DNA of 33,399 nucleotides from a virus, in IMG/VR virus record IMGVR_UViG_3300029742_000017; one strand, written 5' to 3'. The notes below the pieces were generated by a model. The model had not been told where the DNA came from. It worked only from the letters and a program-made list of their open reading frames with translations, and made no database searches. Each line of letters starts with the position of its first letter. Position 1 is the stretch's first letter. Shown in pieces: positions 5,275 to 23,402 of this stretch. Both the position numbers and the translations under genes were made by a program.

Positions 5275-5305
5275 AGGATTAGAGATAAGATAATCAGTAT
5301 CAATA

Positions 5306-5332
5306 TTGAGGCGGTTTATATAGCCGCCTCAA
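5306..5332 (+). promoter_or_regulatory. 9-bp stem hairpin (TTGAGGCGG / CCGCCTCAA, AT-rich 9-nt loop) upstream of the Rep gene; candidate double-strand origin nick hairpin or T-tract-less terminator
   Basis: Hand-paired inverted repeat, followed by an (AT)n stretch ACATATATATAA. Confidence 0.4.
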
Positions 5333-5368
5333 ATCTCTACATATATATAAGGGAAAACCGGCGACCGA

Positions 5369-6223
5369 ATGGTCGCATTAAATCTAGCTAAGAGTATTAA
5401 AACGAGGACAAGGATGTACTACCGAGAAACGATAGTGGCAGGTAAGACGATCATGAGATCGTACCGGGCAACCACCAGAGTGAAAACTGCAGGAGAAAAA
5501 AGGGCAAAGAGATCCAACCCAACGCCGGATGCTGTTGCGAAAACAAATTACAGAAATTCGGTGAAGGTTTTGACTGCGAAACTGAATCATAATTTTTCAG
5601 GCGGGGATCTTCATGTGGTCCTGACATATGCGGGAGATGCTCCGGGCAAGGATCAGGCTAAAAAGGATCTGGATAATTTCATCGGGGATATGAGAAGAGA
5701 TCATCGAAAATCAGGAAAAGATTTTAAGTGGGTTGCAGTGACGGAGTATAAGCACAAAAGAATCCATCACCATGTAGTGCTGAATTGCAGAGATCTCTCA
5801 AAGATCGAAAATCGATGGAAACATGGGTATGTGAAAGTTGCTGTTCTCGATCGCTCCGGAAACTATCATAAGCTGGCTGCGTATCTCCTAAAGGAAACGG
5901 AGAAGACGTTCCGCGCTCCGGACTCTCCGACAAAGAAAAGGTATCGTTGCGCTATGTGTGTGACGATGCCGGAGGTGAAACGGGAAAAGGTATCTGGCAG
6001 ATCTGTTGGAAAAGACATAAAGCCGCCAAAAGGCTACTATCTCGACGAGGATAGCGTGCGAAAATATGAACATGCTATCCTGGGAGTAGAATGTCTGGAA
6101 TACATATGCATCGGCGCCACAGACGATCCACGCCTAAAGCGATGGCCGAAAGGGAAAAAAGTAAGACCGGAACGATGGTACAGGGAAGATAAACAGCTGC
6201 AAATAGAACAGCTGTCGTTTTGA
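5369..6223 (+). CDS. HUH-superfamily rolling-circle replication initiator (Rep)
   Basis: Ordered motifs: HVVLTY (motif I-like), RIHHHVVLN (HUH), AAYLLKETEK (YxxK catalytic Tyr), with typical spacing. An alternative start is ATG 5414. Confidence 0.6.
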   Translation: MVALNLAKSIKTRTRMYYRETIVAGKTIMRSYRATTRVKTAGEKRAKRSNPTPDAVAKTNYRNSVKVLTAKLNHNFSGGDLHVVLTYAGDAPGKDQAKKDLDNFIGDMRRDHRKSGKDFKWVAVTEYKHKRIHHHVVLNCRDLSKIENRWKHGYVKVAVLDRSGNYHKLAAYLLKETEKTFRAPDSPTKKRYRCAMCVTMPEVKREKVSGRSVGKDIKPPKGYYLDEDSVRKYEHAILGVECLEYICIGATDDPRLKRWPKGKKVRPERWYREDKQLQIEQLSF

Positions 6224-6235
6224 TGGGAGGAATAT

Positions 6236-6544
6236 ATGGACGAGAGAAAGATCAGACAATATCGTCATACCGTTATTGCCCTTGGCTGGATCCGCGGCGA
6301 AATCGAAAAAGGCGAAAAGAATGGGGAACAGATGCAGAGACTGAGGAAGCGTGAAGCGGAATATCAAAAGACCAAAGCTGACGTGGAGGAATGGATCAAC
6401 AAGATAGAGGATCCGATAACGCACGCCATCTTTTGCATGAAGCTGGAAGGAAAAACCCATAAGGAGATCGGAGCACAGCTGGGATATTCCAGATCACGCA
6501 TCACCCAGATTATTGAAAAAAATCTGGGCAAACCCAAAGATTAA
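6236..6544 (+). CDS. Sigma-70 region-4-like HTH protein, probable late-gene transcriptional regulator
   Basis: C-terminal HTH KEIGAQLGYSRSRITQIIEK; it sits immediately upstream of the packaging module, as RinA/ArpU/DUF1492-type regulators do. Confidence 0.55.
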   Translation: MDERKIRQYRHTVIALGWIRGEIEKGEKNGEQMQRLRKREAEYQKTKADVEEWINKIEDPITHAIFCMKLEGKTHKEIGAQLGYSRSRITQIIEKNLGKPKD

Positions 6545-6614
6545 CCCCATTAACATTATTAACCGATATAATAGAATTAAGAACAAAATTAAATATGGAC
6601 TAAAGGCAAGGATT

Positions 6615-6653
6615 GACACAAGGATCTCCAACAGAAGCGGAGGTCCTTGTGTC
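6615..6653 (+). promoter_or_regulatory. 15-bp stem hairpin (GACACAAGGATCTCC / GGAGGTCCTTGTGTC, one G-U) 7 nt upstream of the tRNA
   Basis: Hand-paired; 9-nt loop AACAGAAGC; no U-tract follows; a TTGACA hexamer (6613-6618) overlaps the 5' arm. Confidence 0.6.
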
Positions 6654-6660
6654 GCAATGA

Positions 6661-6734
6661 AGCGGGTTAGTGTAATGGGAACACATGAGTCTCCTTAGCT
6701 CAAACTGGCGGTTCGATTCCGTCACCCGCAACCA
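6661..6734 (+). tRNA. tRNA with anticodon CCU (decodes AGG) and an initiator-like acceptor stem (A1xA72 unpaired, G2:C71, C3:G70, A73, encoded CCA)
   Basis: Hand-folded 74-nt cloverleaf: AGCGGGT-TA-GTGT-AATGGGA-ACAC-A-TGAGT-CTCCTTA-GCTCA-AACT-GGCGG-TTCGATT-CCGTC-ACCCGCA-A-CCA. It has U8, G18G19 and a canonical T-loop. Confidence 0.8.
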
Positions 6735-6745
6735 AGGAGGAACTA

Positions 6746-7162
6746 ATGCTAAAGTCATGTCAGTACTGCGGGACGATCCATGATAGCAAATACATATGCA
6801 GCCAGAAAGCACAATCAATCAGAAGACGCAGAAGCTGGGTATCGGAAAAGAATAAAAAGATTGATTCATTTCGAAAAACTAACAGGTGGAAAGAGAAGAG
6901 CGTGCAGATCAGAGAGCGAGACAGTTACTGCTGCCAGGTGTGCAACAGACAGAAGCCACCGCAGTATGTGACAAAAGAAATATCAGTTCATCACATCGAA
7001 CCAATAAGTGAAGCCTGGGAGCGAAGACTTGATGATGATAATTTAATTACGCTATGCAGTAGGCACCATGAGGCTGCAGAATGTGGCGAAATCAAAAGAG
7101 AGACATTAAGGGGCATTGCAGAAGAACAAGAAAAAAATAATGAAGGACCAGTTTGTGGATGA
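6746..7162 (+). CDS. HNH endonuclease (packaging-associated)
   Basis: SVHHIEPISEAW...NLITLCSRHHEAAE HNH motif plus CxxC pairs; AAGGAGG SD; it sits just upstream of terS. Confidence 0.85.
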   Translation: MLKSCQYCGTIHDSKYICSQKAQSIRRRRSWVSEKNKKIDSFRKTNRWKEKSVQIRERDSYCCQVCNRQKPPQYVTKEISVHHIEPISEAWERRLDDDNLITLCSRHHEAAECGEIKRETLRGIAEEQEKNNEGPVCG

Positions 7163-7317
7163 TCCCCCCGAGGGGAAAGGAATAGATTTCCATGAATTCC
7201 CACGACCGACGCCCCACCATCATCCATAAAATATTCCCAGATCAGACTTTCCGCGGGTGTGCGTATGCACGCGCGTAATATATAATAACGAAACCAAAAA
7301 CGGAAGGAGGATTCAAT

Positions 7318-7869
7318 ATGCCGACACCACCAAAACCGGTATTAGTACTGGAAAAAGAGCAAAAATCGCATCGAACGAAAAAAGAATTAGCGGCAAGACG
7401 AAAAATCGAAGAATCTCTCATTTCCGGTGTGAAAATCAAAGAAGATCCTGCGGTAAAACAGGATCCGGTAGCCCATAAAGAGTTTTTAAGGCTGAAAAAA
7501 TTACTGGATGCCATCAAGAAATCGGATGACCTGTATGCGCCGAGCATCAATCGATACTGCATGCTGAAATCCGAATCAGAGCGGTTTGAATTTTTACGTA
7601 CAAAGTGTGAGGAGCGGATTGATGAGCTGATGGATAAGAAGGGCGAAATGGATTACCTGGAATATATTTCGGCTCTCGACAAACTTCAAAAAAACCTGGT
7701 CAATCTTGACAAACAGATCCAGGCGAAACGCCGGATGATGTTTGATATTGAACGGGAAAATGTAATGACGATCGCATCCTCGCTCCGATCCATTCCGAAA
7801 AAAGCTGCACCAAAGAAAAATCCTCTGCAGGAGGCGCTTAGCGGTGATAAAACAAAGCAAAGCTTATAA
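7318..7869 (+). CDS. terS: Terminase small subunit, P27 family
   Basis: The N-terminus MPTPPKP...KSHRTKKELAARR is typical of P27-family TerS; position between HNH and terL; GGAAGGAGG SD. Confidence 0.75.
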   Translation: MPTPPKPVLVLEKEQKSHRTKKELAARRKIEESLISGVKIKEDPAVKQDPVAHKEFLRLKKLLDAIKKSDDLYAPSINRYCMLKSESERFEFLRTKCEERIDELMDKKGEMDYLEYISALDKLQKNLVNLDKQIQAKRRMMFDIERENVMTIASSLRSIPKKAAPKKNPLQEALSGDKTKQSL

Positions 7870-15324: not shown

Positions 15325-18081
15325 AGGGCTGGAAGAATAAAAGGGATCACAATTGAGCTTGATGGTGATTCGAAAGGCTTGGACAAAGCCCTACAAGATG
15401 TAAATAAACGCTTAAAAACAACGCAGAGTTCGTTGAAGGATGTAGACCGGCTTTTAAAGCTGGATCCATCCAACACGGAACTTTTATCACAGAAACAACG
15501 GTTGCTTTCGGATGCGATTGAAAACACGGAGCAGAAGCTGACAACTTTAAAGGAAGCTAGCGTGCAGGCGAAAGCTGCGTTGGAACGTGGCGACCTTGGG
15601 CAGGACAAATATGATGCTCTGCAGAGAGAAATCGTAGCAACAGAAAGTTCCCTGGAAAAATTGAAATCCCAGGCGCAGACTACGGATGCAACGCTCAAGA
15701 GCTCGGGCGGCGGGCTGAAAAGCCTTGGCGAAGCGGCAGAATCAGCCAGCGGAAAAGTGTCTGGTGTCAGCAAAGCTGCCGGCGGATTAGCCGCGGGAGC
15801 TGCAGCAACCGTTCCAGCGACGCAGGAACTTCGGCGTGACTTATCGTTTCTGGAAGAAAATGCAAAGGGCGCCAAAGTAGGCATGAATACCATGGAAACC
15901 GCATTTAAAACGTTTAATGCGGTTTCAGGGGAAACTGATTCGTCTGTTGAAGCTGTTTCAAACCTTTTGCAGGCGGGATTCACGGAAAGTAATCTCCAGC
16001 AGGCGGTAGAAGGTGTATCTGGAGCGATGTCACGCTTTCCGGATACATTAAAGATCGAGTCGCTGGCAGACTCTATTCAGGAGACTGTCGCCACCGGGAA
16101 ATCTATCGGACAGTTCGGTGAATTTCTGGATCGTGTAGGAATAGGAGCATCCAACTTCGACGAAGATCTGTCTAAGTGTAACACCACAGCCGAAAAAACG
16201 GATCTGGTGCTGAAGACTCTTTCCGAAACCGGAATGAACGATGTTTATACCGGCTGGCGGAAAAATAACGAGGCTTTAGCTGATTACGACGATGCCATGA
16301 TCGATATGCAAATGGCTCTCGGTGATCTGGCAGAAAGTATCGCACCGGTTGTGACGGCTCTGGCGGAAGGAGCAACCAAAGCCCTGGATCTTTTCAATAA
16401 ACTTCCACAAGGTGCGAAAGCCGTAGTTGGATCCATGGTTGGCATCACTGCCGCCGCTGCACCTACACTTTCGGCAGTCGGAAAAGTTACGCAAGGCATC
16501 GATGCTCTCAAAGGATCTTCCGAAAAAGCGGGTATCGTCAGCAAAGGACTTTCCGCAGCACAAAAAAGCGTAGCATCGGCTCTATCTGTAGTTCCTGCTC
16601 CGGCAGCAGCTGCAGCGGGAGCATTGGTAGTTGTAGGCACCGCAATATATTCTGCGTACCAAAGCACTCATGAATATACAAATGCCGCCAAGGAAATGTC
16701 CGAGGTAAACGATCAGAATGTGGCAAGTATTGAAGCGACATCTGAAAAAGCGGAGTTTTACGCAGGCCAGTTAGATCAGCTCAGTGAAAAAGAAAATAAG
16801 ACGGCGCAGGATAAACAGCTCATACAGTCGTACGTTGATCAGCTGAATGAATCAGTAGACGGACTGAATCTGACATATGATGCAGAGGCGGATAAGCTAT
16901 CCGAAACAACGGACGCGATTTACACCAAGATCGACGCGATGAAGCAGGAGGCTTTGCAGGCGGCGTATGTTAAACAATCGCAGGCGGCTCTTGATAAATA
17001 CGCAGAGTCTCAGATCAAAACAGCGGAAGCGCAGGAAAAGCTTAAAACTGCGCAGGAAGCTTATGATAAGGCCGCAGAATCGGGATATGTCAGCCAAAAG
17101 CTTTCGACCGATCTTGCGCAGGCGGAAGCGGAATATAACGATCTGAAAACAGCCACAGGTACATACTGGACTGAATATGTTCGTCAGTCGAATGCAGCGG
17201 CCATGCAGTCCGGGCAGTGGGATAAGCTCGTGGAAGAAGCTGGGCTGGCTGGAAAGGACATCCCGAAGAGCTTGACCGATGGAATCAAAGCAGGACAGTA
17301 TGCCGTACCGACTACTGTGGAAGAATTGAAAGCGTTGATACAGTTCGACGAACTGGCAAACAAGGCTGGGGTTTCCGGAAGCAAGACGGTACAGGAGCTT
17401 TCATCAAAACTTGCTGCAGGAGAAATCACCGCACAAGAGGCAGCTGCACAGCTATCGAACGCTGTGGATCAAGGCCTTGGAACGGCGCCTGCTAAAGCGA
17501 GAGGAAAAGGAGACTCTGCTGGAAAACAGTTTGCTGGCGGTGTATCCAGCACAAAGGGAAACGCCTCTGGCGCCGGAAAAGCGATTGGATCTGCAGCCGC
17601 ATCGGGCGCCGCATCAGCGAATTTTAGCGGAGCAGGCTATAATGATGGACTTGGATATGCGAGGGGTCTTAGAAATGCAATCACTGTGGTTGCAAATGCA
17701 GGGGCAGCTATTGCGCGGGCGGCTCTTACGGCAGCTAAAAAAGAATCTGATCAGCATTCGCCATCTAAAAAATGGGCTGCAGCCGCACTCATGGATGTAC
17801 GGGGCTATACAGAATCCATGTGGAAACAAGTGCCGAAAGTCGAAAAAGCAGGACAAGGTGTGGCACTGGCAGCGATGACAGGCGCCAAATCTGTAACAAT
17901 GGAATCTCTCGAAGGATTAAATCCGATCAACGATATGTCGGCCAACATTGTGCAACAGTTTGATTATAACCAGATGTATGCTGCAATGAAAGCGGCGGTT
18001 AGTGAGTCGAAGTTCTCAATTTCCATTGATGGTCGAGAGTTTGCGCGAGTACTTCGGGGCGTGGGGGTGAATATGAATTGA
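15325..18081 (+). CDS. Tape measure protein, proposed AGG start
   Basis: AGG 15325 is the first codon after an in-frame TAA and lies 7 nt after AGGAGG (15312-15317). The extension (x)AGRIKGITIELDGDSKGL matches the usual TMP N-terminus MAG.IKGITIE. The first canonical start (TTG 15379) has no SD. Confidence 0.8.
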   Translation, partial: RAGRIKGITIELDGDSKGLDKALQDVNKRLKTTQSSLKDVDRLLKLDPSNTELLSQKQRLLSDAIENTEQKLTTLKEASVQAKAALERGDLGQDKYDALQREIVATESSLEKLKSQAQTTDATLKSSGGGLKSLGEAAESASGKVSGVSKAAGGLAAGAAATVPATQELRRDLSFLEENAKGAKVGMNTMETAFKTFNAVSGETDSSVEAVSNLLQAGFTESNLQQAVEGVSGAMSRFPDTLKIESLADSIQETVATGKSIGQFGEFLDRVGIGASNFDEDLSKCNTTAEKTDLVLKTLSETGMNDVYTGWRKNNEALADYDDAMIDMQMALGDLAESIAPVVTALAEGATKALDLFNKLPQGAKAVVGSMVGITAAAAPTLSAVGKVTQGIDALKGSSEKAGIVSKGLSAAQKSVASALSVVPAPAAAAAGALVVVGTAIYSAYQSTHEYTNAAKEMSEVNDQNVASIEATSEKAEFYAGQLDQLSEKENKTAQDKQLIQSYVDQLNESVDGLNLTYDAEADKLSETTDAIYTKIDAMKQEALQAAYVKQSQAALDKYAESQIKTAEAQEKLKTAQEAYDKAAESGYVSQKLSTDLAQAEAEYNDLKTATGTYWTEYVRQSNAAAMQSGQWDKLVEEAGLAGKDIPKSLTDGIKAGQYAVPTTVEELKALIQFDELANKAGVSGSKTVQELSSKLAAGEITAQEAAAQLSNAVDQGLGTAPAKARGKGDSAGKQFAGGVSSTKGNASGAGKAIGSAAASGAASANFSGAGYNDGLGYARGLRNAITVVANAGAAIARAALTAAKKESDQHSPSKKWAAAALMDVRGYTESMWKQVPKVEKAGQGVALAAMTGAKSVTMESLEGLNPINDMSANIVQQFDYNQMYAAMKAAVSESKFSISIDGREFARVLRGVGVNMN

Positions 18082-18923: not shown

Positions 18924-19912
18924 TCTTAACAGGAATTGACGGGCTGGAAATAAGGGAACTGAAATTCATCAAAGTAGATGTAGACCTGAGTGACACAAAA
19001 GATTTTGAGATTCAGATCCCGGCGTCCGAATGGAGCTCAGATCTTGAATATAAAGGGCGCATATTCATCCCTGGCACCGAATATGGTGGAAGAATCGGAG
19101 GAAAAGGAGCGAGTACACAGAAAGATGTACGCACCATAAGAGGACATACCTGGCGAGGAATGCTTGATAAGAAAATCATCAAGCCGCCGGCAGGAGAAGA
19201 TTATAAGATAGTAAGTGGAGAACTGAATGCGATCCTCAAACAGCTGATCCAGGAAGCAGGCATGACGGCTCTTTTTACAGTATCAGAAGAAAATACCGGA
19301 GTGTTGATTACAAGCTATCAGTTCGATCGATACATAACTCTTTTGTCCGGGATCCAGAAAATGCTTAAGACAAAAGGTTATCGAATTGATATCCAGTATG
19401 TGCAGGGTGAGAGAGGTCTTCCAGGATACGTGCAGATCGGAGCAGTTCCCGTGATTGATTATTCCGAACGGATAGAGTTATCACAGGACAGCCAGTTGAA
19501 TTTTAAATTTGACGAAAACAAGAATGGTGTGAACCATCTGATCTGTCTTGGCAAAGGTGATCTAAAAGAAAGACTCGTTGTTGATTTGTATATTCAAAGG
19601 GATGGAAGTGTTGGAACTACTCAATACTTCAAAGGACTGGACGAAGTGGCAGAAACCTATGAAAACAACGCGATTGATGATGTAACTGAGATGACCGAGA
19701 AAGGTACCGAGGAAATTATTGAACGAGCCAGCAAACAGACCTTCGAGATGGACGTTGAACGTCTTGGCATCGAAGTGGAAATTGGAGACATTATAGGCGG
19801 AAGAGACTATATCACAGGAATGCACCTGGCAAAGCCAGTTGTAAATAAAATTTACAAGCAGGAACAATCCGTTATTTCTAAAGAATACAAATTGGAAGGA
19901 GATGAGCAGTAA
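18917..19912 (+). CDS. Tail-tip / baseplate protein in the Tal position (Sipho_Gp37-like)
   Basis: Position after Dit; AGGAG SD then GTG. Confidence 0.5.
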   Translation: MVILTGIDGLEIRELKFIKVDVDLSDTKDFEIQIPASEWSSDLEYKGRIFIPGTEYGGRIGGKGASTQKDVRTIRGHTWRGMLDKKIIKPPAGEDYKIVSGELNAILKQLIQEAGMTALFTVSEENTGVLITSYQFDRYITLLSGIQKMLKTKGYRIDIQYVQGERGLPGYVQIGAVPVIDYSERIELSQDSQLNFKFDENKNGVNHLICLGKGDLKERLVVDLYIQRDGSVGTTQYFKGLDEVAETYENNAIDDVTEMTEKGTEEIIERASKQTFEMDVERLGIEVEIGDIIGGRDYITGMHLAKPVVNKIYKQEQSVISKEYKLEGDEQ

Positions 19913-20598
19913 GGGTAATTATTTTCGCTGATGCGTCAGAGTTGACTGTGCAGCAGGTGATCCCAAAGGACGGGTATCTGAATGTCCGGGTGCTGGCGTC
20001 CATTGCGGATCCGGAGATGCTCCGGAATCTGTTCGAGGACGAAACGGCGACCAGGAAAATGACCGTCAAGGAAAATGGGAACACGGTGGCCACGTACGAA
20101 GGCTATACGGAATTCTATTCCACCGAGGAGTATACCGGGAAAATCTACGGTGTGACGAACTATAAACCGGATCGCACGCCTGAAGCGGAAAATGCGATTC
20201 TGGAAAGCTCGGTGAGGGTAGTCAAAATTCAGGCGCAAAGCTTGAACGACACAGATGCACTGACAGTACAGAACCTGTATCCGGAATGGTCAGGAGAATC
20301 CGTGACCTATGCCAAAGATTTTAAAGTCAATCGGAATGGAGTATTGTATAAATGTCTGCAGGACCATGTTTCGCAGGAGTCTTGGTCACCAGAAGACGCC
20401 CCTAGCTTATGGGCAAAGGTACTGATTCCAGATCCGGAAACGATTCCAGAATGGGAACAGCCAGGCAGTACAAATGGATATTCTAAAGGGGACAAAACGA
20501 CCCACAACGGAAAGACTTGGGAATCGCTCGTAGATAATAATGTATGGGAGCCAGGCGTAACCGGAACCGAAACTGTCTGGAAGGAGGTAAGTGCATGA
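19912..20598 (+). CDS. Receptor-binding-type tail protein with two CBM5/12-like (chitin-binding type 3-like) repeats; start AGG 19912 (probable) or TTG 19942
   Basis: Repeats YAKDFKVNRNGVLYKCLQDH...PSLWAKV and YSKGDKTTHNGKTWESL...NVWEPGV. GGAAGGAG 19894-19901, then AGG 19912 overlapping the upstream TAA (TAAGG). TTG 19942 lacks an SD. Confidence 0.6.
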   Translation, partial: RVIIFADASELTVQQVIPKDGYLNVRVLASIADPEMLRNLFEDETATRKMTVKENGNTVATYEGYTEFYSTEEYTGKIYGVTNYKPDRTPEAENAILESSVRVVKIQAQSLNDTDALTVQNLYPEWSGESVTYAKDFKVNRNGVLYKCLQDHVSQESWSPEDAPSLWAKVLIPDPETIPEWEQPGSTNGYSKGDKTTHNGKTWESLVDNNVWEPGVTGTETVWKEVSA

Positions 20599-22383: not shown

Positions 22384-22668
22384 ATGAAAATCAACTTTAA
22401 ACTCAGACTTAAAAACAAAGTTACCTTAGTAGCTTTAGTAGCCGTTATAGTTCCATTTATTTATCAGGTACTTGGAATCTTTGATATTGTACCGAAGATC
22501 AGCGAAGGAGATGTAGAACAGTTCTTGGGACTGTTGATCAATTTCCTGGCGATCCTCGGCGTTGTCGCGGATCCAACTACAGCAGGAATGAAAGATACCG
22601 ATTTAGCTATGGCATACAATAAACCGAGAAAAGAAACAGATGTCTATCCAGACGAGGAGGTAATGTAA
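22384..22668 (+). CDS. Holin (phi LC3-family-like)
   Basis: MKINFKLRLKNKVTLVALVAVIVPFIYQVLGIF... two TM segments, small size, immediately upstream of the endolysin. Confidence 0.75.
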   Translation: MKINFKLRLKNKVTLVALVAVIVPFIYQVLGIFDIVPKISEGDVEQFLGLLINFLAILGVVADPTTAGMKDTDLAMAYNKPRKETDVYPDEEVM

Positions 22669-23402
22669 GGAGTTTTTCGCCAAGACTTAATGCTCCGGCG
22701 GCGAGCAATAAATATTGGATACATACATCCGGCGGCGGACTTAACAGCTGCATCAGAGTAAGTGGAAAGTCTGTTTTGCCTAACTGTGTTGGATACGCAT
22801 GGGGGCGTGCATATGAGATGCTGGGCAAAGCACCGAAGTTATCGCGCGCTAATGCAGAAACCTGGTACGCGCATAAGGACGGTTACTCCCGGGGGAAAAC
22901 ACCGAAGCTCGGCGCGATCGTTGTCTGGGCGAAAGGTAAAGTCGGTAATAGCAAAGATGGAGCCGGTCATGTAGCCGTAGTGGAGCAGATCCACTCTAAC
23001 GGGTCCTTTACAGTTTCCCAGTCCGGATATACTGGCAAGAAACGGTTCTGGACCAGTACAATCCCGAAGTCTGGATACCTGAAAGGATACACCTTCCTGG
23101 GATTCATTTACTTGCCGATATCAACAGGTAGCAGCTATTCAACGTCCTCTGGTAGCATCAAAGTAGGCGGTACTTACACTCTGCGGGCAAACATGAAGGT
23201 GCGTACGGGTCCAGGTACCGGCTACCGCTGGAAAAAAAGATCCGAGCTGACGGCTATGGCTAGAGCGTACTCCCAGAACCAGACAAACGCCGTGCTGAAT
23301 TTGGGAACGCGAGTAACCTGCCTGCAAATCACAGGAAACTGGATGAAGATTCCTTCGGGTTGGATCTGTATCAGATCAGGCGGTGCAGTATATATTTCGT
23401 AG
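22668..23402 (+). CDS. Endolysin: N-terminal CHAP-type cysteine peptidase/amidase plus C-terminal SH3b-like domain, proposed AGG start
   Basis: GAGGAGG 22654-22660, then AGG 22668 overlapping the holin TAA (TAAGG). The extension (x)SFSPRLNAPAASNKYWIHTSGGGLNSCI is the typical start of this endolysin type. The first canonical start (TTG 22776) sits 2 codons before the catalytic NCVGYAWGR Cys. Confidence 0.8.
   Translation, partial: RSFSPRLNAPAASNKYWIHTSGGGLNSCIRVSGKSVLPNCVGYAWGRAYEMLGKAPKLSRANAETWYAHKDGYSRGKTPKLGAIVVWAKGKVGNSKDGAGHVAVVEQIHSNGSFTVSQSGYTGKKRFWTSTIPKSGYLKGYTFLGFIYLPISTGSSYSTSSGSIKVGGTYTLRANMKVRTGPGTGYRWKKRSELTAMARAYSQNQTNAVLNLGTRVTCLQITGNWMKIPSGWICIRSGGAVYIS

Follow-up and report, generated by a model that had tools for sequence, protein, structure and literature searches.

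A phage-encoded tRNA with a CCU anticodon as a probable initiator at AGG start codons of late genes in gut phages

A tRNA gene with the anticodon CCU was located at 6661-6734 (+ strand) of a viral DNA stretch of 33,399 nucleotides (IMG/VR record IMGVR_UViG_3300029742_000017, the whole of which is called the window below), and it very likely encodes an initiator tRNA of the phage which would make AGG, or AAGG, a start codon for late genes. With this initiator-like CCU tRNA and eight genes opening on AGG, the phage seems to bring its own tRNA for reading start codons. On a wider scale, it is likely that many gut Bacillota phages use a natural initiator tRNA of this kind, encoded by the virus and with an anticodon other than CAU, to set AGG apart as a private start codon of their virion and lysis genes; in effect, U37-U36-C35-C34 would read the quadruplet AAGG. 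To our knowledge, all natural translation systems described so far initiate with a CAU-anticodon tRNA. A search of the full-text literature for a natural non-CAU initiator returned engineered systems only, so that the precedent for the mechanism belongs to the laboratory.

The CCU tRNA and its position in the phage genome

The window represented a temperate siphovirus-type genome of about 33 kb with about 45% G+C. The genes of the early and replication block started with ATG, the late operon was arranged in the order HNH endonuclease, small and large terminase, portal, S78 protease, HK97 capsid, connectors, tail tube, tape measure, tail proteins, holin and CHAP endolysin, and a serine integrase was encoded on the opposite strand. 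The late ORFs were open under code 11, and the anticodon of the sole tRNA was a sense anticodon. The region 5300-9600 gave no match to GenBank phages by megablast and no cultured relative.

A single tRNA was called by ARAGORN in the whole window, at 6661-6734 (+) with the anticodon CCT, and Rfam RF00005 matched 6661-6731 with 49.9 bits (gathering score 29). The acceptor stem was AGCGGGT/ACCCGCA, followed by U8 and A9, with A73 and an encoded CCA; the D arm was GTGT-AATGGGA-ACAC, the anticodon arm was TGAGT-CTCCTTA-GCTCA with C34, C35 and U36 at 6693-6695 and U37 at 6696, the variable region was AACT, and the T arm was GGCGG-TTCGATT-CCGTC. Each arm matched the cloverleaf that had been drawn by hand in an earlier note on this DNA, in the sequence as well as in ARAGORN, Rfam and the minimum free energy (MFE) fold, which was a cloverleaf with nucleotide 1 unpaired. 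The 5' end claimed there was kept by both the Rfam covariance model and ARAGORN, with 1:72 unpaired and marked as non-standard by Rfam.

The window tRNA had an AxA mismatch at 1:72 together with G2:C71, C3:G70 and A73. In E. coli biochemistry, an unpaired 1:72, G2:C71, C3:G70 and A73 are determinants of methionyl-tRNA formyltransferase and of EF-Tu exclusion. The bases at positions 2-6 and 67-73 had been equated with those of tRNAfMet from E. coli and B. subtilis; this was borne out for E. coli with a checked reference, which was present unchanged (100% identity) in every one of the 5,426 E. coli genomes, and it presumably also holds for B. subtilis tRNAfMet. The features that had been listed against a classical initiator were correct as well, namely G30:C40 as the only one of the three G:C pairs (29:41, 30:40 and 31:39 were A:U, G:C and U.G), U11:A24 and U37. 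Position 20 was G when G18 and G19 were assigned as in the alignment. The lack of two classical initiator marks in the window tRNA (A11:U24 and three anticodon-stem G:C pairs) counts against reading it as an initiator. No match of the tRNA to E. coli genomes was obtained by blastn even at E = 10.

The tRNA followed a Sigma-70 region-4-like regulator gene (6236-6544, +; Pfam Sigma70_r4, E 4.8e-6; PHROG sigma factor/transcriptional regulator families), the last ATG-start gene ahead of it. Its CCA abutted the Shine-Dalgarno (SD) sequence AGGAGG (6735-6740) of the gene for the HNH endonuclease (SD and gene 6735-7162, +; ATG at 6746; Pfam HNH), so the placement described earlier was accurate. The HNH gene was the first late gene and had a canonical start, and the order of tRNA and then HNH was kept in relatives. 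Upstream of the tRNA, the promoter-like site TTAACA-16-TAGAAT (6550-6577, +), with a 10/12 consensus match and a number of such sites not above shuffle expectation, is a possible start of the late transcript. A 16-bp hairpin without a U tract (6614-6654, +) ended 6 nt before the 5' end of the tRNA in the MFE fold of 6545-6660 (-27.9 kcal/mol, z -3.8; none of 200 shuffles was as stable), and this predicted hairpin may possibly be a processing or regulatory element.

A phage family of CCU tRNAs

The tRNA family was searched with a pattern composed of the anticodon loop and the T loop. In IMG/VR, 88 contigs were matched, and the anticodon was CCU in all 89 family loci. A scan of 185,579 species genomes gave 117 pattern matches and 3 family tRNAs. 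These three came from Bacilli and Clostridia MAG contigs, of which at least two were phage-like with AGG starts; the remaining matches were dismissed as chance hits of a short gapped pattern. With only three members in so many species genomes, the tRNA was considered essentially phage-specific. The hosts are probably gut Bacillota.

The covariation set included 22 distinct sequences from 89 viral contigs and the 3 MAG contigs. The cells of the family cloverleaf were 93.5% paired, with 106 compensatory cells versus 31 in shuffles. Pair 1:72 was unformed in 22/22 sequences (AxA, CxA, GxA, UxU) and pairs 4-7 covaried, while G2:C71 was found in 21/22, C3:G70 in 22/22 and A73 in all but one member. 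In the anticodon arm, G30:C40 (22/22) and the loop CUCCUUA with U37 (22/22) were invariant, G29:C41 was present in 13/22, and 31:39 was U.G in 15 and C:G in 7, with G31:C39 in 0/22. The pair A11:U24 was found in 13/22. Position 20 was U in 16, A in 5 and G in 1 of the 22, with A20 in the most abundant subgroup, and because of this variability the ArgRS element A20 was regarded as not conserved. That most relatives have A11:U24 and G29:C41 had been missed in the earlier note.

The family thus resembled tRNAfMet in the unpaired 1:72, G2:C71, C3:G70, A73, C32-U33, A38 and G30:C40, and in most members also in A11:U24 and G29:C41. The acceptor was identical in some members: in two loci (L067 and L183) it was the exact tRNAfMet stem CGCGGGG/CCCCGCAACCA. 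The closest annotated tRNAs among GenBank phages were tRNA-Met. In contrast to tRNAfMet, the family tRNA has CCU instead of CAU and U37 instead of A37, is encoded by phages and not by cells, and never has G:C at 31:39, and the window copy has U11:A24 and A29:U41. In the subgroup 'TAGCAGGA', ARAGORN proposed a shifted 5' end (U-1:A73), which was rejected as an artefact in view of the resulting 8-bp stem with an internal AxA and of a -1 base not conserved in other subgroups. A tRNA-Ile(UAU) beside the CCU tRNA in 46 loci was also rejected as a second reprogrammed initiator, having G.U or U.G at 1:72 and an ordinary acceptor, and ATA was not enriched at SD-supported starts.

AGG starts of late genes and the homologous codons in relatives

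Eight late genes, all on the + strand, had a strong SD followed after 6-9 nt by an AGG just past an in-frame stop, and no ATG, GTG or TTG was present in any of the eight at usable spacing. No convincing AGG start was found in the early and lysogeny genes of the window. The AGG-start genes, as claimed before, were confirmed by the SD at 6-9 nt, the upstream in-frame stop, PHROG profiles starting at residue 2 and the alignment of Met1 of homologues. For the portal, protease, capsid, Ad1, tail and tape measure genes, the AGG was homologous to ATG, GTG or TTG of relatives.

The portal protein (9546-10757; Pfam Phage_portal; phrog_12 from residue 4) was preceded by GGAGGA, 6 nt and AGG, with A at nucleotide -1. 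A portal-based scan of IMG/VR gave 36 loci. Close relatives of the portal (58-99% identity) had AGG at the conserved M-G-L-F-K-K N-terminus, and distant relatives (53% identity or less) had ATG, GTG or TTG at this position. The tRNA(CCU) was present in 6/6 AGG-portal loci with enough upstream sequence, and any tRNA in 0/10 ATG/GTG/TTG-portal loci with at least 5 kb upstream.

The prohead serine protease (S78; 10745-11371), assigned by SD and spacing, domain and relatives, had AGG in L001, L002, L004, L054 and L070; in L018 and L030, an ATG followed one codon past the aligned position. The AGG of the HK97-type major capsid gene (11371-12534; domain and PHROG match) overlapped the protease stop as TAAGG; it was kept in the relatives with the tRNA, and the same overlap was found in L049. 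In the head-tail adaptor Ad1 (12873-13190; phrog_40), AGG-AAA-GTG-AGC-GAA aligned with ATG-AAA-GTA-AGT-GAA (M-K-V-S-E) in about 15 relatives. The major tail protein (14238-14777) matched phrog_88 from residue 2, and a database search gave the full-length homologues P0002 and P0004, whose Met1 aligned with its AGG. The AGG of the tape measure gene (15325-18081) directly followed TAA; residues 2-142 matched positions 2-142 of the phrog_15002 profile, and AGG-GCT-GGA-AGA in the window corresponded to ATG-GCG-GGA-AAA in two relatives without the tRNA (L019 and L036). A PHROG profile also began at residue 2 for the tail sheath of L049.

For the two remaining genes, comparison was narrower. The tail protein with CBM5/12 domains (19912-20598; phrog_12931 from residue 3), with an AGG overlapping the upstream stop as TAAGG, could be compared with L001 only (99% identical), so that its start had the weakest comparative support. 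The CHAP-domain endolysin (22668-23402), with an AGG overlapping the holin stop as TAAGG, was assigned by SD, spacing and stop overlap only, and no relatives of it were recovered for comparison. The TAAGG overlap, which is the counterpart of the familiar TAATG overlap, was thus found in 3/8 AGG starts.

Association of AGG starts with the tRNA across loci

Starts were counted by a heuristic based on ORFs of at least 100 codons, an SD 5-mer and a spacing of 5-10 nt. In loci with the tRNA, AGG was the only start at the SD-supported position in 75 ORFs against 228 with canonical starts, compared with 5 against 175 in loci without it (odds ratio 11.5), a contrast whose significance is overstated by the relatedness and non-independence of the contigs, some of those without the tRNA being short enough that it may simply be missed there. 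The tie between AGG starts and the tRNA that had been suggested therefore held for all loci as well as for the portal loci. AGG was by far the commonest non-canonical codon at SD-supported positions in loci with the tRNA (76, the next 23), and in loci without the tRNA it was outside the top twelve. Moreover, 68/75 AGG starts were downstream of the tRNA on the same strand, versus 92/220 same-strand canonical starts (odds ratio 13.5).

AGG starts were observed in almost every tRNA subfamily and also in unrelated structural families, including major head (two PHROG families), tail sheath, tail tube and portal, which indicated that the trait spans siphovirus- and myovirus-type phages. How widespread the AGG-start system is in gut phages had gone unnoticed in the earlier note.

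Complementarity of U37 to the nucleotide before AGG and decoding of internal AGG

The nucleotide at -1 of the AGG starts was A in 70/75 and G in 4, and it was complementary to U37 in 74/75. The proportion of A at -1 was 31% for ATG starts in the same loci and 35% for internal AGG. Pairing past -1 (A38 with U at -2) received little indication, with a weak T preference of 41% at -2. Hollerer and Jeschek reported that the E. coli initiator uses its position 37 to pair with mRNA -1, and that compensatory changes at the two positions, such as A37U, raise initiation (PMC10018350). Since only a tRNA that occupies the P site at initiation could form a fourth pair of this kind, the complementarity between -1 and U37 is meaningful only for a P-site initiator. 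The A at -1 fits U37 of the phage tRNA and not A37 of the host initiator, which points to the phage tRNA as the reader of the AGG starts. The match of the invariant U37 by A at mRNA -1 is an observation that was missing from the earlier note.

Internal AGG codons were read differently. At 773 aligned internal AGG positions of the window proteins, relatives of 70% identity or less had R in 32% and K in 28%, and M was outside the six commonest residues. The pattern was that of AGA and CGN codons, and ATG faced M, L or I. These results showed that AGG is still an arginine codon in elongation.

Whether the same tRNA also takes part in elongation was considered with these data. A dual-use tRNA, charged with Arg, initiating at AGG and elongating at internal AGG, is unlikely. 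One anticodon could serve both roles, the insertion of Arg would be harmless where internal AGG is Arg, and the most abundant subgroup has A20; however, the conserved 1:72 mismatch and U37 are expected from established tRNA biology to weaken EF-Tu binding and A-site decoding, and an elongator role is not required by any data here.

It is quite improbable that the tRNA is an ordinary elongator tRNA-Arg(CCU) which boosts the decoding of internal AGG, the AGG starts being unrelated to it and read inefficiently by the host initiator or through translational coupling. Such a role would agree with the tRNA-Arg label given by ARAGORN, with C35 and U36, which fit ArgRS, with internal AGG being Arg, and with the fairly common use of AGG in the phage (9.2 per 1000 codons); tRNAs that compensate for codon usage are carried by many phages. 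Ordinary phage elongator tRNAs also resemble it as small compact phage genes at an early/late junction. They differ in that the CCU tRNA has an initiator-type acceptor, identical or nearly identical to that of tRNAfMet, and has matching non-canonical starts. Against an elongator also stand 1:72, unpaired in every family sequence despite covariation elsewhere, the invariant pyrimidine instead of a purine at position 37, A20, which is not conserved and is G in the window, the tight co-occurrence of the tRNA with AGG starts, and the A at -1, which matches the phage U37 and not the host A37.

There is very little chance that the AGG starts are annotation or sequence artefacts with true canonical starts elsewhere. 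Public gene callers do pick a downstream TTG, GTG or ATG: the public gene call P0089, 96% identical to the tail protein, has 115 aa versus 179 and is without the conserved N-terminal third. In the major tail protein, the next canonical codon is the TTG at 14427, 63 codons downstream, and such downstream calls delete a conserved N-terminus, 63 residues in this case. In-frame stops lie immediately upstream of the AGG codons, and the pattern recurs in metagenomes and lineages that are independent of one another, among them a myovirus-type locus that encodes a sheath and a tube. The idea that AGG is part of a second SD for a later start was also rejected, as no in-frame canonical codon is present downstream and the AGG is directly followed by the residues that are conserved behind the ATG of relatives.

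Proposed mechanism, charging and purpose

For the preferred reading of the tRNA as an initiator, which had been put forward in the earlier note and is backed by several independent results of sequence comparison, the following course can be proposed. The anticodon of an initiator tRNA would have changed from CAU to CCU, and the tRNA would be transcribed as the leading gene of the late operon. Once processed and aminoacylated, it would enter the P site of the 30S subunit and not the A site, where it would pair with AGG 6-9 nt past a strong SD, U37 adding a fourth pair with the preceding A. Initiation at AGG would then yield the portal, protease, capsid, adaptor, tail tube, tape measure, tail protein and endolysin. 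The phage tRNA would presumably be formylated, and the unpaired 1:72 together with G2:C71, C3:G70 and A73 would keep it out of elongation, where AGG means arginine.

The amino acid carried by the tRNA is, judged from its bases, about evenly balanced in favour of Arg, with Met somewhat less probable. Recognition by ArgRS depends mainly on C35 and U36, and with these bases and A20 in 5 of the 22 members the tRNA could carry Arg. In E. coli work, formyltransferase acts poorly on an Arg-charged initiator. For a tRNA charged with Met, the exclusion from EF-Tu would be needed because internal AGG must stay Arg. The rule of Shulgina and Eddy (A73, G2:C71, C3:G70 and no A20) classed the window tRNA as a Met acceptor (PMC8629427).

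With regard to purpose, the preferred reading is a translational gate or timer, or a dedicated channel, by which abundant proteins of the virion and of lysis would be made only once the tRNA accumulates. Other purposes may be an initiation channel of the phage's own, free of competition for the host tRNAfMet, insulation against leaky expression in lysogens, or resistance to defences aimed at the host initiator.

Relation to known systems

The nearest precedent is the engineered E. coli i-tRNA(CCU) with AGG, which gave the highest expression of the non-canonical pairs in every strain tested and exceeded AUG in one (bioRxiv 10.64898/2026.04.16.719103). Both systems combine an initiator body having a changed anticodon with the complementary codon behind an SD; in contrast to the laboratory construct, the phage pair is natural, occurs across many phage lineages, is tied to late genes and is known from sequence. 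Data on CCU and AGG were absent from PMC11744186. Without such a tRNA, AGG has been used experimentally as a non-cognate start, and raised IF3 specifically represses initiation at AGG (PMC6868393).

In gut phages, the tRNA-based change of codon meaning that is closest in setting concerns stop codons. Borges et al. reportedly described in 2022 gut-phage stop-codon recoding, in which a phage suppressor tRNA is combined with recoded late genes. In both cases a phage tRNA changes the meaning of a codon mainly in late structural and lysis genes, and timing or gating has been suggested; however, stop recoding acts on elongation and termination at in-frame stops, whereas the AGG system acts on initiation and its ORFs are open under the standard code.

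The tRNA(CCU) of Bacilli in which AGG is reassigned to Met also has CCU on a Met-type body with A73, G2:C71, C3:G70 and no A20 (Shulgina and Eddy 2021, PMC8629427), and differs as an elongator that reassigns all AGG, whereas the phage tRNA has the 1:72 mismatch and internal AGG is Arg. Such a sense reassignment, in which a Met-charged tRNA(CCU) reads all AGG as in the UBA7642 Bacilli clade, would accord with the Met-acceptor rule passed by the window tRNA (PMC8629427), but it was rejected as next to impossible by the alignment of internal codons, 60% of the 773 AGG positions matching R or K with M outside the top six, and by the 1:72 mismatch, which is not an elongator feature.

If the reading as an initiator is true, a conserved natural non-CAU initiator would be an exception to the near-universal CAU rule, and initiation would join the steps recoded by viruses, of which stop codons are the known case. 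As standard gene callers are blind to AGG starts, the major capsid, tail, portal and lysin genes of these phages, a widespread group in the gut, would be truncated or mis-started in public databases. The system would also offer a testable model for the translational gating of late genes, a naturally optimised orthogonal pair of initiator and start codon for synthetic biology, and natural evidence for the pairing between tRNA position 37 and mRNA -1.

Other anticodons were met as well. In L245, with the anticodon CGU, no SD-supported ACG starts were found. Related small inovirus-like genomes had initiator-type tRNAs with the anticodons AGU and CUG, adjoining genes that seemed to start with the matching codons. 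Given these genomes, reprogrammed initiation may be a general phage strategy invisible to current gene callers.

Translation starts and gene calls

The AGG starts in the loci carrying tRNA(CCU) were compared with the ATG starts of the same phages. The distance from the Shine-Dalgarno (SD) sequence to the start codon was most often 9 nt when that codon was AGG and 7 nt when it was ATG. The second codons after AGG were most frequently those of Lys, Ala and Gly. At several sites the last A of a TAA stop codon doubled as the first base of the AGG start, giving TAAGG overlaps in the window at 11369-11373, 19910-19914 and 22666-22670, and in a related locus (L049) at 7838-7842. In these phages TAAGG is the counterpart, with AGG, of TAATG coupling.

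The public protein P0089, a gene call from near-identical phages, begins at TTG 14427 and gives a tail protein of 115 aa, so that 63 conserved residues of the window's major tail protein (14238-14777, AGG start) are absent from it. Database calls for the remaining AGG-start genes probably contain the same kind of error. At the start position of the HNH gene directly 3' of the tRNA, ATA was found in L113 versus ATG in L047, two related loci with otherwise identical context at this site; this ATA may reflect sequence variation or may itself serve as the start codon.

Surroundings and variation of the tRNA(CCU)

A tRNA-Ile(UAU) was located directly 5' of the tRNA(CCU), in the order tat-cct, in 46 of the 89 loci, for example at 6742-6816 of L009. 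With G.U or U.G at 1:72, it looks like an elongator, and no enrichment of ATA was found among SD-supported starts. Two loci, L039 (tRNA sites at 2364-2440 and 2639-2712) and L071 (6608-6681 and 6880-6956), carried a degenerate tRNA(CCU) with a mismatch at 2:71 and further unusual tRNAs adjoining. One of these had the anticodon UCA, was named 'SeC' by ARAGORN and is possibly an opal suppressor, and the second was called with a 4-base anticodon (gaat). Together they are a hint that those phages recode stop codons or use frameshift decoding.

Within the tRNA(CCU) family, C73 in place of A73 was displayed by a single member (L008 3481-3554 / L080), which was otherwise typical, with G1xA72 and an encoded CCA. 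In the window, a perfect 16-bp hairpin without a U tract (6614-6654, z -3.8) ends 6 nt 5' of the tRNA start and may have a part in processing or regulating the late transcript.

Initiator-type tRNAs in small inovirus genomes

The small, circular 'Inovirus sp.' genomes L242 (GenBank MT135284, 2936-3009, anticodon AGU), L244 (MT135287, 626-699, CUG) and L245 (MT135291, 3593-3666, CGU), all three from pig gut, were found to contain unannotated tRNAs with initiator-type ends. These tRNAs had GxA or CxA at 1:72, G2:C71, C3:G70 and CCA. Directly 3' of the tRNA, a gene for a large signal-peptide protein appears to start with the codon matching the tRNA anticodon, ACT (3036) in L242 and CAG (721) in L244. 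Both putative starts were preceded by an SD, and their -1 base was U, opposite A37 of the tRNA. Unlike these two genomes, L245 had an ordinary ATG start.
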